From Pristiophorus japonicus (lineage: Eukaryota), in contig NC_091995.1 of NCBI RefSeq assembly GCF_044704955.1, positions 15,500,001 to 15,564,000 of the forward strand: a DNA stretch of 64,000 bases, given 5' to 3'. The position numbers were made by a program, and so were the translations under genes. Shown in pieces: positions 2,951 through 35,399 of the stretch. The notes beneath the pieces are model-generated. The model was not told where the DNA came from, made no database searches, and worked only from the letters and a program-made list of their open reading frames with translations. Within the stretch, counting starts at the first letter, position 1, and each line of letters starts with the position of its first letter.

Positions 2951-5924
2951 TTAGTACCCCCTTCCTGCTTTCTCTCCATACTCCTTGATCCCTTTAGCCA
3001 CAAGGGCCATATCTAACTCCCTCTTGAATATATCCAATGAACTGGCATCAACAATTCTCTGCGGTAGGGAATTCCATAGGTTAACAACTCTCTGAGTGAA
3101 AAAGTTTCTCCTCATCTCAGTCCTAAATGGCTTACCCCTTATCCTAAGACTATGTCCCCTGGTTCTGGACTTCCCCAACATCGGGAACATTCTTCCTGCA
3201 TCTAACCTGTCCAGTCCCGTCAGAATTTTATATGTTTCTATGAGATCCCCTCTCATCCTTCTAAACTCCAGTGAATACAGGCCCAGTCGATCCAGTCTCT
3301 CCTCATATGTCAGTCCTGCCATCCCAGGAATCAGTCTGGTGAACCTCCGCTGCACTCCCTCAATAGCAAGAACGTCGTTCCTCAGATTAGGAGAGCAAAA
3401 CTGAACACAACATTCCAGGTGGGGCCTCACAAAGGCCCTGTACAACTGCAGTAAGACCTCCCTGCTCCTACACTCAAATCCCCTTGCTATGAAGGCCAAC
3501 ATACCATTTGCCTTCTTCACCGCCTGCTGTACCTGCATGCCAACCTTCAATGACTGATGAATCATGACACCCAGGTCTCGCTGCACCTCCCCTTTTCCTA
3601 ATCTGCCACCATTCAGGTAATATTCTGCCTTTGTGTTTTTGCCCCCAAAGTGGATAATCTCACATTTATCCACATTATACTGCATCTGCCATGTATTTGC
3701 CCACTCACCTAACCTGTTCAAATCACCCTGCAGCCTCTTAGCGTCCTCCTCACAGCTCACACCGCCACCCAGTTTAGTGTCATCTGCAAACTTGGAGATA
3801 TTACACTCAATTCCATCATCCAAATCATTAATATATATTGTAAAGAGCTGGGGTCCCAGCACTGAGCCCTGCGGCACTCCACTAGTCACTGCCTGCCATT
3901 GTGAAAAGGACCCGCTAATCCCGACTCTCTGCTTCCTGTCTGCCAACCAGTTCTCTATCCACGTCAGTACATTACTCCCAATAACATGTGCTTTGATTTT
4001 GCACACCAATCTCTTGTGTGGGACCTTGTCAAAAGCCTTTTGAAAGTCCAAATACACCACATCCACAGGTTCTTCCCTGTCCACTCTACTAGTTACATAC
4101 TCAAAAAATTCCAGAAGATTTGTCAAGCATGATTTCCCCTTCATAAATTCACGCTCACTTGGACCAATCCTATCACTGCTTTCCAAATGTGCTGATATTT
4201 CATCCTTCATGATTGATTCCAACATTTTCCCCACTACTGATGTCAGACTAACGAGTCTATAATTACCTGTTTTCTCTATCTTTCCTTTTTTAAAAAGTGG
4301 TGTTACATTAGCAACCCGCCAGTCCACAGGAATTGATCCAGAGTCGATAGACTGTTGGAAAATTATCACCAATGCATCCACTATTTCGAGGGACACTTCC
4401 TTAAGTATTCTGGGATGTAGACTATCAGGCCCTGGGGATTTAACGGCCTTCAATCCCGTCAATTTCCGTAACACAATTTCCCGCCTAATAAGGATATCCT
4501 TCAGTTTCTCCTTCTCACTAGACCTTCGGACCCCTAGTATATTGGGAAGGTTATTTGTGTCTTCCTTTGTGAAGACAGAACCAAAGTACTTGTTCAATTG
4601 GTCTGCCATTTCTTTGTTCCCCATTATAAATTCACCCGAATCCGACTGCAAGGGACCTGCTTTTATCTTCACTAATCTTTTTCTCTTCACATATCTACAG
4701 AAGCTTTTGCAGTCAGTTTTTATGTTTCCGGCAAGCTTCCTCTCGTACTCTATTTCCCCCCTCTTAATTAAACCCTTTGTCCTCCTCTGCTGTATTCTAA
4801 ATTTCTCCCAGTCCTCCAGCTTGCTACTTTTTCTGGCGAATTTGTATGCCTCTTCCTTGCATTTAACACTATCCTTAATTTCCCTTGTTAGCCACGGTTG
4901 AGCCACCTTCCCCATTTTACTTTTACTCCAGGCAGGGATGTACATTTGTTGAAGTTCGTCCATATGATCTTTAAAGGTTTGCCATTGCCTATCCACCGTC
5001 AACCCTTGAAGTATCATTTGCCAGTCTAATCTAGCCAATTCGCGCCTCATACCATCAAAGTTACCTTTCCTTAAGTTCAGGGCCCTAGTTTCTGAATTAA
5101 CTGTGTCACCCTCCCTCTTAATAAAGAATTCTACCATATTATGGTCACTCTTCCCCAAGGGGCCTCGCACAACAAGATTGCTAATTAGTCCCTTCTCATT
5201 ACACATCACCCGGTCTAGGATGGCCAGCTCTCTGGTTGGTTCCTCGACATATTGGTCTAGAAATCCATCCCTAATACAGGAAATCCTCCTCCACCACATT
5301 GCTACCAGTTTGGTTAGCCCAATCAATATGTAGATTAAAGTTGCCCATGATTACTGCTGTACCTTTATTGCACACATCCTTTATTTCTTGTTTGATGCTG
5401 TCCCCAACCTCACTACTACTATTTGTTGGCCTGTACACAACTCCCACTAGCGTTTTCTGCCCTTTGGTATTCCGTAGCTCCACCCATACCAATTCCACAT
5501 CATCCAAGCTAATGTCCTTCCTTACAATTGCATTAATTTCCTCTTTAACCAGCAACGCCACCCCGCCTCCTTTTCCTTTCTGTCTATTCTTCCTAAATGC
5601 TGAATACCCTTGGATGTTGAGTTCCCAGCCTTGGTCACCCTGGAGCCATGTCTCTGTGATGCAAATTACATCATACCCGTTAACTGCTATCTGCATAGTT
5701 AATTTGTCCACCTTATACCGAATACTCCCTGCATTGAGGCACAGAGCCTTCAGGCTTGTCTTTTTAACACACTTAGACCCTTTGGAATTCTGCTGTAAAG
5801 TGGCCCTTTTTATTTTTTGCCTTGGTTCTCTTCTCTCCACTTTAATCATCTCCTTTCTATCTTTTGCTTCTGTCTCCATTTTATTCCCCTCTGTCTCCCT
5901 GCATAGGTCCCATCCCCCTGCCAT
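2951..5924 (-). pseudogene. CR1 ORF2 (endonuclease-reverse transcriptase), frameshifted near 5280-5330
   Basis: ORFs 5271-5924 (CITETWL, APE) and 2951-5326 (791 aa RT) overlap in different frames. Confidence 0.9.
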
Positions 5925-5925
5925 A

Positions 5926-6812
5926 TTAGTTTAACTCCACCCCAACGGCATGAGCAAACACTCCCCCTAGGACATTGGTTCCAGTCCTGCCCAGGTGAAG
6001 ACCGTCCGGTTTGTACTGGTCCCACCTCCCCCAGAACCGGTTCCAATGTCCCAGGAATTTGAATCCCTCCCTTCTGCACCACTGCTCAAGCCACGTATTT
6101 ATCTGAGCTATCCTGTGATGCCTACTCTGACTAGCACGTGGCACTGGTAGCAATCCTGAGATTACTACTTTTGAGGTCCTACTTTTTAATTTAACTCCTA
6201 GCTCCCTAAATTTGCTTTGTCGGACCTCATCCTGTTTTTTACCTCTATCGTTGGTACCTATATGCACCACGGCAACTGGCTGGTCATGCTCCCTTTTCAG
6301 AATGTCCTGCACCCGCTCCGAGACATCCTTGACCCTTGCACCAGGGAGGCAACATACCATCCTGGAGTCTCGGTTGCGGCCGCAGAAACGCCTGTCTATT
6401 CCCCTTACAATCGAATCCCCTATCACTTTTGCTCGCCCATTCTTTTTTCTGCCCTCCTGTGCAGCAGAACCAGCCACGGTGCCATGAACCTGGCTGCTGC
6501 TCTCCCCTGATGAGTCATCCCCCTCAACAGTACCCAAAGTGGTGTATCTGTTTTGCAGGGGATGACCGCAGGTGACCCCTGCACTACCTTCCTTGCAGTG
6601 CTCTTCCTGTTTGTCTTTCATTCCCTATCTGGCTGTGGACCCTTTACCTGTGGTAAGACCAACTCACTAAATGTGCTATTGACATCATTCTCAGCATCAT
6701 GCATGCTCCAGAGTGAATCCACCCGCAGCTCCAGTTCCGCAACGCGATTCGTTAGGAGCTGCAGGCGGATGCACTTCCCACATGGTACAAGAGGAGCATA
6801 ACACGTGTCCAA
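5926..6812 (-). pseudogene. CR1 ORF1 (esterase-type), frameshifted
   Basis: ORFs 6618-6812 (CGKCIRLQLL..RVAELE coiled coil) and 5926-6621 (SGNH hydrolase motifs). Confidence 0.88.
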
Positions 6813-7008
6813 GCTCTCCTGCCATGACTTAACCCCTAGATTAACTTAATTTGGCAACAACAATGCTAAAGGTTACTTACTGAAATTGAAAAGAAAAAGA
6901 AAAGGTACTTACCACTCACCAGCCAATCACTTACCCCCTTGGCTGTGACGTCACCTTTTGATTTCTTTCTACTTCTTTTTTGCTTTCTGTCCTGCTGCAG
7001 ATGCACAA

Positions 7009-7195
7009 GCTGGGCCTTTATAGGCCTCACTCACACTGCTCCCGCCTCTCACTGACTGCCGCCACCTCAGGAACACCCGCTGGGCCTTTATAGGCCTCAC
7101 TCACACTGCTCCCGCCTCTCGCCGACTGCCGCTGCCTCAGGAACACCCGCTGGGCCTTTATAGGCCTCACTCACACTGCTCCCACCTCTCGTCGA
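7009..7195. repeat. three about 69-bp tandem units in the CR1 5' UTR
   Basis: gctgggcctttataggcctcactcacactgctcccgcctctc... repeated at about 7009, 7078 and 7149. Confidence 0.85.
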
Positions 7196-7560
7196 CATAC
7201 AGACGATGTCATAAATAGTAACAAGTTACACTCAAATGCAGACAATGTCATGAATTATTATTATTCACATAGTAACAAGGTACACTAAAATACAGACAAT
7301 GACCAGCCACTTACTATCCTGAAGTCAAGTCTTACTGCCATAAATCGCATTCCATCATGAAGTTCTGTAGACACACAGGTGATCAGAATGTCACATTTGA
7401 ATGGCTAAGTGGTTCCAATCGTCTAGCAGCCTGTTTCGATCCAAACATCCAATCTTCCTGCTTTTAATCCAAACTTCAATCTTCCAACTTTTATCCCCTT
7501 TTGATTTCTCCGGACTGCGCCGAAGCAAAGAGTTCAAAAATGTGGGCTTGTGCTCCCACA

Positions 7561-7580
7561 TTCCCCCACTTCTTCTCTTT
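7561..7580 (-). other. polypurine tract of the ERV
   Basis: AAAGAGAAGAAGTGGGGGAA directly abutting TG of the 3' LTR. Confidence 0.85.
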
Positions 7581-7610
7581 GTCTCTCTGCAGGTCTTATT
7601 TGGGTAACAT

Positions 7611-7955
7611 TTATATGGCCATTTGGGCTTGTTCAACAGCATTCTCCAATTGTGGTCCTTGTTTTCGAACACGACATCCATAGTAAATCAAAATGACCAG
7701 CACAATCAACTGAAACAGCACCAGCATAAGGACAGGGTGTATCATTGTGTTCATCACACCAGTTGCCATCAGGCTCCATCCGAACAATGACTCTCACCAG
7801 CTTCCATGTCCAATCTGGTCCAAAGTTGTGTGAACATCTTCGATTTCCGCAGTGTGATGGCGAATGTCCACAACAATTGCTTGATTCAAACTCTGTAGCT
7901 GTTGAAATGTTGTACTCCATTTCCGCATTTCCTTCTTCCAAATAGCAGCATGATG
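7611..7955 (-). pseudogene. env: env transmembrane-subunit remnant
   Basis: Manual translation: heptad-like QQLQSLNQAIVVDIRHHTAEIEDVHTTLDQIG, then SW*ESLFGWSLMATGVMNTMIHPVLMLVLFQLIVLVILIYYGC (WW..LFGWS..ATG..N...HP motif of ERV-S-type env plus TM helix), one in-frame stop. Confidence 0.75.
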
Positions 7956-8271
7956 AGGGTCAGATTGGGTTGCTGCACACTCAGAATCTCAGGATGCCCA
8001 TTGGTCTGTGATCACCATATCCATTTTCATCTAAAAGTCAACTTTCAATTTTTGATGCTTTCGACTGAATTCCACACTGTTTACATTCAGAAATGTAATC
8101 TCGCAATTGGTGTCTTCGACCAAGTCTGTTGCCCTCTGCACAGTTTTTAACAATTTCCTCTGCTTTGTGGGAGAAGTGTAACAACATAGAATATAGGATG
8201 ACGGAAATGCTGAACAGTCAGTCGAGAGACCCAGTCCTTCTCTCGGTTCACCCTTCGGAACTGCTGTCATT

Positions 8272-8620
8272 AGGAGGTGTGTGGGGGACCTGACCCATCC
8301 ACCTCCATGGCACGAACCTGGTATTGCAGTACTTCCAGGAACGGTGCAGTGGCTCTAGGCCTTTTGGCTAAGATCAAGTGTAGTATCTGTTCTTATCAGT
8401 TTAATATCCCCTATGGGGACATGATATTGAATTGATTTTTGGACAGGGAGCTGGATCAGGGGCATGCCCCGTTCTCTCCATGCACCGACCTGGTATTGCA
8501 ATATTTCCAGGAACGGTGCAACTTCGCCTCTCGGCCTTTTGGCCTAAGATCAAATATATTGGCGCAAAGTGATCTTTGGCGTTAGAGTTGATCCGGAAAG
8601 AAATTGGATTAAAAAAAAAA
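8272..8620 (+). mobile_element. U2 snRNA-derived multimeric retroposon (poly(A) tail, about 13-bp TSD)
   Basis: U2 3' domain (8273-8348), near-full U2 (8349-8522), U2 5' end (8523-8553), about 57-nt tail and A10 (8611-8620); flanked by aactgctgtcatt (8259-8271) and aactgctttcatt (8619-8631). Confidence 0.85.
8349..8522 (+). ncRNA. U2: U2 snRNA-like copy (probably pseudogenic)
   Basis: GGCCTTTTGGCTAAGATCAAGTGTAGTATCTGTTCTTATCAGTTTAATATC identical to vertebrate U2; Sm site ATTTTTG, stem-loop IV CCTGGTATTGCA..CCAGG; lacks about 8 nt of stem IIa (TGATACGT); no own upstream promoter. Confidence 0.85.
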
Positions 8621-9378
8621 CTGCTTTCATTTCCTCTCTCGACATTTGCGACGCTCCAACTTCTATTTCGCATCCTTTAAGATCATGTTTATATCTCCCA
8701 CATTTGAGCTTTTCATTGAACACCTCATCAGTTCTGAGACAGCCCATTCCCACAGAAACTTTAAATGCTTCTGAACAAGCTTCTCGCACCGCTTTCATCT
8801 CTGACTCTTCAGTAACTGCTCTTTGTCCATCTGGGGTGATGGGGCACTGTCTCTGAAGAGGGGAATCCCTTTCCTCCAGGATCACCGCAACCTTCATTTG
8901 TCCGGCGGACCCTGCGTCAATTACGAACTGCCCTTCCACACAAGTCTCGATAAGGGTATGGCCACCCCTATCCTGAAGTAAGGGTCCGAAAGAAGCGACA
9001 CGTGTGGTTGAGACGTGGCATCCCTCGGAAACCTTGCGCATCTGCGGAATCTACGCCCAACCTCATCAACTGAACCGAGGTATCATGCCTATCTGTGACT
9101 CTAGCTTCCCTCTCCTGATACTTCAACTTTTCTTTTAACTTTTCTAATTCTTTAGCCAGTCCCCTATCAACTGATGAGTCGGGATCCAGGCACCACTCGG
9201 TCCTGCTCCTTTTATGCGACTCCTCCCATTACTAACTGGAAATCCCTTTAAGTCACGACAACTAAGAGAATGCTCACCCCTCGAACTGATGTGTGGGAAA
9301 CACATCTTCAAAAAAACTCAGCCAATGAACTTTCTGCTTCATGCCGGGGTCTTGGAACTCAGCCAACGAACTTTTGAA

Positions 9379-9396
9379 ATCACGTCGGGGTCATCA
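9379..9396 (-). promoter_or_regulatory. primer binding site, tRNA-Trp
   Basis: TGATGACCCCGACGTGAT, 17/18 match to the canonical tRNA-Trp PBS TGGTGACCCCGACGTGAT, 3 nt after the 5' LTR. Confidence 0.85.
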
Positions 9397-9399
9397 ATA

Positions 9400-10018
9400 T
9401 GTTGTAACGGCTGTCTTGCTCTTTGTTGCTTCAAACGTCAAATTACACACACACACTCAGTTGTAGTAAAGGCAGGATCGGGTCTTTTATTCAGACATTC
9501 ATACTAAACAAACCCAGCATGAAAGTTACTGAGATACTTCACAAAGGCAGCTCTCTGTTTTCCGTGGCTATTTGTGACACACCTTCCGAGATTCCAGTGT
9601 CTAGTGTCCAGTGTCTAAACTCTCCTCTTTATACTAAAAAAGCCTTTGAATTCTTATAGCACATTTAGGCAATTGTCCTGAAATCACGGCTACCTGCTTT
9701 CTGAATTACTATGCACAAACCAGATCGTTTTTCATACAGACAATGTCATCAAATAGTGACAAGGTACACTCATATACAGACAATGAAAAGCCACTTACTA
9801 GCCTGAAGTCAAGTCTCACTGCCAAAAATCGATTCCCACCATGGAGTACTATAAATACACAGGTGATCAGAATGTCACATTTGAATGGCTAAGTGGTTCC
9901 GATTGTCTAGCAGCCTGTTTCGATCCAAACATCCAATCTTCCTGTTATATAACCCTTTTGATTTCTCCAGACTGTGCCGAAGAAGTGAGTTTCAGAAATG
10001 TAGGCTTGCGCTCCCACA
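9400..10018 (-). repeat. 5' LTR of the ERV
   Basis: Minus strand begins TGTGGGAG and ends GTTACAACA; colinear with 2515-2850 plus 7196-7560; TATAAA about 9633 and AATAAA about 9491 on the minus strand. Confidence 0.9.
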
Positions 10019-35142: not shown

Positions 35143-35399
35143 TCTCTCTATAACTCACTCCCAGTCTGTGATATTTTCTTTATTTTTTTCTCAAAAATAT
35201 ACATTATTCATATAAAATTTTCACAATACATTGGAACGTAGTTCAGTACCTTGCGGTCTGCAATTCCATACAATTCGTTTGGATGCTGACAGCAGTTCCA
35301 TACTAGCGTACATTTCATTTCAAGGTACAGTTTAGTACAATCCGTAAATCACGTTACATGTAGTACTGTGCAAATAAGGTCACTCGCCCCCAGGTGTTA

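Follow-up and report, generated by a model that had tools for sequence, protein, structure and literature searches.

A fusion of two SINE families, B and A, both assembled from snRNA sequence, lies between positions 8259 and 8631 of the window, the 64,000-nt stretch of the Pristiophorus japonicus genome analysed here. We have little doubt that the two families are real and that the copy in the window joins them. Taken as a whole, the account that we consider probable is that the window copy is a B-A fusion of two young SINE families, which probably owe their copying to a Keno-like LINE and their transcription to source copies residing in U2 genes. The parts of the insertion, and the host element that carries it, are as follows.

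7200..10018, minus strand: host multicopy LTR element (repeat families D1, D3 and D12)
8259..8271, plus strand: 5' target-site duplication (TSD) of 13 nt, a single occurrence in 11 of 11 empty paralogs
8272..8373, plus strand: SINE family B, 5'-truncated; several B copies match it at 100% identity over 102 nt
8272-8348, plus strand: U2 stems III-IV (U2 3' domain, unit 1) within the B part
8349-8373, plus strand: internal U2 stem-loop I of family B
8358..8373, plus strand: 16 nt of U2 stem-loop I common to B and A, containing the B-to-A crossover
8358..8523, plus strand: head of family A, a near-full U2 (RF00004 match; alignment to host U2)
8524..8553, plus strand: second U2 5' segment, internal to family A (nt 2-30, 93% identity)
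8554..8610, plus strand: tail of family A, hairpin-forming and a homologue of the B tail (shuffles; fold)
8611..8620, plus strand: poly(A), A10, the final two A being common with the 3' duplication
8619..8631, plus strand: 3' TSD, with one change relative to the 5' copy (12/13)

The three head-to-tail U2 units, the tail and the A10 are arranged just as the earlier note had described them, and its proposal of an insertion with a TSD is confirmed by the empty site, since the insert is absent and the 13-mer is single in all 11 of the paralogous host copies examined. Three of these 11 paralogs have an uninterrupted natural frame, 150 aa or longer, running through the insertion site. An Rfam search of the whole window gave a single match, to U2 (RF00004, 8348-8526, 125.5 bits, E 5e-25), which agrees with the description of the second unit as a near-full U2, although its first 9 nt derive from family B. 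Likewise, the branch-pairing motif and a Sm-like site reported for this unit are indeed kept, but 9 nt, forming the 3' arm of stem IIa, are deleted. The difference in stem III from the human sequence had been overstated, as the host U2 itself reads GGGGC-TT-GCTCC. Unit 1 still folds (z -2.9), and runs of T4-T5 are present inside the element. Judged from its sequence, the window copy is a retrotransposed, 5'-truncated fusion of evolved U2-derived SINE-like sequence, and no one-off cDNA.

The 3' flank of the insert belongs to the multicopy LTR element, for which a genome search returned 463 candidates. Its LTR-like repeats, at about 7200-7560 and 9399-10018, are approximately 90% alike over 196 nt, and no Pfam family matched its frames. 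The interior is short (about 1.5 kb), with a purine tract at about 7561-7580, and the element is unclassified; a primer-site-like stretch at 9379-9396 presumably resembles a tRNA-Trp primer site. Three tandem 70-nt repeats (7004-7213) adjoin the LTR, and 2951-6870 on the minus strand is occupied by a LINE whose RT-bearing frame, preceded by further frames upstream, is 799 aa long; from its motifs we take this LINE to be CR1-like. An old fragment at 35194-35297 (minus strand) has 75% similarity to the 3' terminus of the Keno-like LINE described below. No tRNA was found within the window.

Family A, about 265 nt long, opens with a near-full U2; a second segment from the U2 5' end comes next, and the element closes with 57 nt of tail and poly(A). 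Family B measures about 310-345 nt; in it, U2 1-28 leads into a U1-derived middle, which is followed by U2 stems III-IV and by an internal stem-loop I of U2, and then by a tail of 85 nt and poly(A). The middle of B agrees with host U1 at 46 of 55 aligned positions (0/300 shuffles as good), and RF00003 matches a B copy bearing a U1 extension. Genome-wide searches at up to 1 mismatch gave at least 479 matches to the A tail motif and at least 5,769 to a B motif, both counts being lower bounds, while the reversed controls gave 0. By the measure of identity to one reference copy, family A is young, because 26 of 30 position-ordered copies are at least 97.7% identical to it, and 22 of 30 position-ordered copies begin within U2 nt 1-13.

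The true U2 genes of this shark are found in an array of 765-bp units and in a second cluster on contig C9. An older variant of family A, designated A0, is nearly identical to the array U2 and connects A to the host U2 gene. At the A0 junction, U2 continues beyond its 3' end for 5 nt of 3' flanking gene sequence, to which U2 nt 10 is joined, and the second U2 segment then reaches nt 38, where the tail begins. The same 9 nt of the 3' arm of stem IIa are missing from most A0 copies, and one A0 copy (L243) keeps all 191 nt of U2. The A head differs from host U2 by 13 substitutions, and the fact that none of these breaks a U2 pair (null mean 3.9, P 0.007, simple mutation model) suggests that it has been under selection on RNA structure; in the same test, the 3' domain of B kept its U2 pairs no better than chance (P 0.33). 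RNA of family A, retaining the branch-pairing and Sm-like motifs without stem IIa, may meet the snRNP pathway. The middle of B and the heads match the host's own U1 and U2, pointing to a local origin of these SINEs. Single 5' additions have recurred, with U1 placed onto B (L034) and A0 (L246), and U2 onto A (L022) and B (L048).

The tails of A and B are homologous to one another (0/300 shuffles as good). Their derivation from a degenerate U2 Sm region, as had been suggested for the window copy, was rejected, since 39/300 (A) and 284/300 (B) shuffles scored equally high. Against the A0 tail, 8/300 shuffles did as well with U2 and 83/300 with U1, and Rfam gave no other match that could be a source of the tails. 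An origin from the 3' UTR of the Keno-like LINE was discarded as well (no homology; 235/300 and 91/300 shuffles), and the similarity of the B tail to the LINE 5' UTR (12/300 shuffles), being one among eleven comparisons, was not accepted.

A gap in the U2 array is filled by an intact 5.7-kb LINE of the Tx1/Keno type. It specifies an ORF1 protein of 581 aa with zf-CCHC and RBD_ZCCHC3 domains, and an ORF2 protein of 1,147 aa with APE, RT and zf-RVT domains (Pfam); ORF2 shares 39% identity with a Danio 'transposon TX1' protein and with the Takifugu RT Q76B34, which we take to be KenoFr1. The LINE protein also matches gene models of sharks over short stretches at high identity. The LINE starts with a U2 1-44 head of its own, carrying two changes (L098:8328-8371, minus strand), and within 20 nt after this head there is what we presume to be an octamer-like motif. 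After the poly(A) of the LINE the sequence resumes at U2 nt 38, which is where Keno has been reported to insert (37 nt into U2, same 3' flank), and in the available text of two reports Keno is described as specific to that U2 site (PMC6136364; PMC4640811). Strict U2 specificity does not hold for the shark LINE: among the best 30 matches out of 1,567 candidates genome-wide, 9 are at the U2 site, 2 are in the U2 head of another copy and 19 lie elsewhere. Family B is present within 60 nt after the LINE 3' end at 9 of these 19 non-U2 sites, often with the same spacer repeated.

The occupancy of the U2 genes by these elements was counted in 122 units from three array stretches, which are possibly overlapping assemblies of one array. 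Intact U2 is present in 101 units, 15 are led by the LINE and 6 by B, and all begin at gap 0 after the upstream region. The LINE-led and B-led units end in U2 38 onward (U2 38-191 in the B units), and one further array B, situated behind a LINE, is interrupted at its own nt 38. The C9 cluster represents a second U2 gene type; there, B begins at +1 of one gene, and A copies are followed by U2 38-191. At several loci, A, A0 and B are each followed by nt 38 onward of U2 or of a SINE. A full-length A behind the U2 upstream region was seen in none of the 122 array units and in none of 11 annotated loci. The U2 genes of the C9 cluster (L100, L102, L196-L216) lie in units of 18-21 kb, and their 3' flank holds an old LINE 3' fragment, then nested pieces of A and U2 38-191. 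One stretch of C19 (G000:C19:69610001-69730000; L176-L186, L103) has 16 of 17 U2 units disrupted, 11 of them LINE-led and 5 B-led, and in four units a LINE insertion interrupts the U2-derived head of another copy at nt 38. The Keno-like LINE is probably the mover of the SINEs, and the Tx1-type partner envisaged in the earlier note is to that extent supported.

The copies within U2 genes are themselves reasonably likely to be the sources of the SINEs. The B subfamily that resides in the array has 649 candidates, and all 40 that were scored are 100% identical over 81 nt; at 30 of 30 dispersed loci of this subfamily, identity to the array copy is 97.9-100%, and upstream gene sequence is present at none of the 30. 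Transcription of the SINE from +1 of the U2 genes fits such a pattern, in which dispersed copies are near-identical to the array B and carry no upstream gene sequence. Full-length dispersed copies in general start at U2 +1 to +13. Within 300 nt, the upstream region of the main array lacks an octamer, and it gave no recognisable PSE match to the U1 genes (p 0.17-1.0), so that the word promoter is used here on the basis of position. The upstream region at C9 appears PSE-like by eye, which we regard as an impression, the match to U1 genes not being significant. Eight public runs from three studies are listed for a B copy, none of which is RNA, and one run of a second organism contains 0.32 of the B-copy words, which is a word match only.

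The same families and the same Keno-like partner could also be combined with a different source of transcripts, if the copies in U2 genes were mere landing sites and transcription came from flanking promoters, from LINE read-through in tandem arrays or from an internal promoter. This would suit the absence of an A master from the arrays, the frequent position of SINEs directly behind the LINE or one another, the main array without a PSE match, and the several other B subfamilies, which are 87-95% identical to the array copy. It leaves the start of full-length dispersed copies at U2 +1 to +13, without upstream sequence, and the near-identity of dispersed copies to the array-resident subfamily as points against it, and we hold it to be unlikely, though it deserves to be kept in mind.

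By a strict test, TSDs of 8-20 nt were found at 48 of 83 non-duplicate A and B loci (90 loci minus 7 duplicates). The dispersed targets show no resemblance to the U2 site (3.60 vs 3.34 matches, p 0.13; upstream p 0.95), and an initial impression that the target in the window resembles it failed across the 48 sites. Dispersal mainly by a different LINE, either L1 or another Tx1 family, with Keno making only the U2-site insertions, would be compatible with targets that have no U2-like consensus, which another poly(A)-reading LINE could make, and with SINE tails that share no homology with the 3' UTR of the Keno-like LINE. However, the Keno-like LINE is itself off the U2 site in 19 of its 30 best matches, and has sites and spacers in common with B in 9 of these, which makes a separate disperser improbable. 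Four loci (L272, L282, L057 and L160) hold long tandem arrays in which up to 6-7 SINE and LINE copies occupy one site, with poly(A) and a repeated short spacer between them; these sites have no sequence consensus.

The three-unit form itself is rare. A search with the whole element returned 1,136 candidates, and among 40 scored it is full length only at the window and at one locus on C17, nearly all the others beginning at unit 2. Since 8272-8373 matches B at 100% and 8358-8610 matches A copies at 98.4% identity, the crossover must lie within the 16 nt at 8358-8373. This junction has 6 matches at up to 2 mismatches in the 5.9-Gb genome: two B-to-A (the window and C17), three belonging to one small B-B dimer subfamily with a common junction (L092, L093 and L095), a multimer that has propagated, and one other B-B. 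As the two B-to-A loci carry different B and A subfamily marks, the window type of fusion probably arose twice. Tandem copies occur at 5 of 27 position-ordered A loci and, for B, in 8 of 99 gaps (<700 nt, among the first 100 B matches) vs 0.05 expected, and B-then-A tandems are present at several loci. The latter are a natural precursor of the window fusion, and a template switch or a tandem collapse would give identical sequence.

The description of the window copy as a member of a multimeric U2-derived family therefore stands for its parts, which are evolved, multicopy and SINE-like, but not for the three-unit form, which is no family; instead of unit junctions shared across many copies, the B-to-A junction is present at only 2 loci. 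For an evolved three-unit family one could point to the second B-to-A copy on C17, and to the 3-copy B-B dimer subfamily as showing that multimers can propagate. With only two B-to-A cases among the six junction matches, which differ at subfamily marks, and each half 98-100% identical to its parent family, such a family is very improbable. Ligated or circular U2 would yield head-to-tail joins, but an origin of the element as a single cDNA of cellular U2 RNA, whether chimeric or rolling-circle, is refuted by the changes of the units relative to host U2, which are common to hundreds to thousands of copies.

A B-A fusion of two families probably copied by Keno could have come about in five steps. 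The Keno site would first have received a short poly(A) RNA, giving U2 1-38 plus a tail (1), and a full U2 with 5 nt of 3' flank, joined in front by template switching, would have given A0 (2), which then drifted into A, while B acquired a segment of U1 by exchange. In the third step, we propose that the U2-headed SINE lands at +1 of a U2 gene by homology-guided 5' joining, because it begins with U2 sequence, and that it would there be transcribed by the upstream Pol II snRNA promoter. The LINE proteins, needing no shared 3' end, would copy the SINE to U2 sites and to nearly random sites (4), and the window fusion would have formed at or soon after one insertion episode, by a template switch or by collapse of a B-A tandem (5). 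We lean slightly toward the fuller proposal that these are undescribed, independently arisen and very recently active snRNA-built SINEs that carry the target site of their partner LINE; Keno would home them into U2 genes, where the U2 head replaces the first 37 nt of the gene and provides a Pol II snRNA promoter, and each dispersed copy would seed a new Keno site.

On the basis of the genome sequence, A and B are best read as SINEU-like elements from outside crocodilians, for which Keno is the likely mover and U2 promoters are the likely starting points of transcription. A classical Pol III SINE with a 7SL, tRNA or 5S head was rejected on the origin of the heads, which are U2 and U1: only U2 passes Rfam, the window has no tRNA, and T4-T5 runs occur within the element. 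In the literature searched, with Repbase Reports and most subscription papers outside its scope, we found no snRNA-derived SINE from outside crocodilians, nor one tied to Keno or to U2 promoters, and no passengers described for Keno. According to the accessible text of the original description, SINEU-1/-2/-3 are reported only from crocodilians and are targeted to Mariner-N4_AMi; their partner was inferred from target preference and their transcription was left open (Kojima 2015, PMC4494074). The mechanism by which snRNA-headed SINEs are transcribed was still called undemonstrated in 2018, in the part of a later paper that was available (PMC5786205). If the reading proposed here is true, it offers a concrete route by which promoter-less snRNA SINEs such as SINEU are born and transcribed. 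This genome has a young and apparently still active system, with candidate source loci, an intact copy of the likely partner LINE and intermediate forms that lead from the U2 gene to the SINE, and since all are found in one genome the question of SINE transcription becomes testable at named loci. It also provides a site-specific LINE with relaxed targeting.

The SINEU-type traits of short length (<500 bp), poly(A) and a shared structure in many copies are found in A, A0 and B, and are absent from the three-unit fusion. Like SINEU, as far as the available text of its description goes, A and B are short poly(A) retroposons with U1 and U2 parts, recurrent 5' additions, tandem insertions around the TSD and internal oligo-T; for SINEU a Tx1-type partner of the group clustering with Keno was proposed (PMC4494074), and the probable partner of A and B is Keno-like. 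Unlike SINEU, they are very young, have the exact U2 nt 37/38 site in common with an intact Keno-like LINE, occur at +1 of U2 genes, and are targeted to the U2 site or to near-random sites, with no preference for Mariner-N4_AMi. Host range, target and snRNA parts of their own host set them apart from SINEU-1/-2/-3, which were compared by description.

The LINE resembles Keno, as portrayed in the accessible text, in its APE endonuclease, its U2 site with the same 3' flank, and tandem insertion (PMC4640811, PMC6136364), but differs in being widely dispersed, in having a U2 1-44 head, in inserting into its own head and in having probable non-autonomous passengers. A parallel is seen in R2 and the R2/R1 SIDEs of Drosophila, which in the available text are passengers at the target of a site-specific LINE in a multicopy RNA gene, depend on transcription of the host gene, and have had snRNA added at their 5' ends by template jump (PMC3414825). 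However, SIDEs are there described as deleted LINEs with a ribozyme and the LINE 3' end, confined to rDNA (PMC3414825), whereas A and B are built of snRNA, lack the 3' end of the LINE and are spread genome-wide. Lastly, template switching as in the snRNA/L1 chimeric retrocopies and U2 pseudogenes of mammals, in the available account, explains the single 5' additions, and possibly the window fusion (PMC4494074). The mammalian chimeras are presented there as independent, one-off events (PMC4494074), whereas A, A0 and B amplify as families whose copies have their junctions in common.
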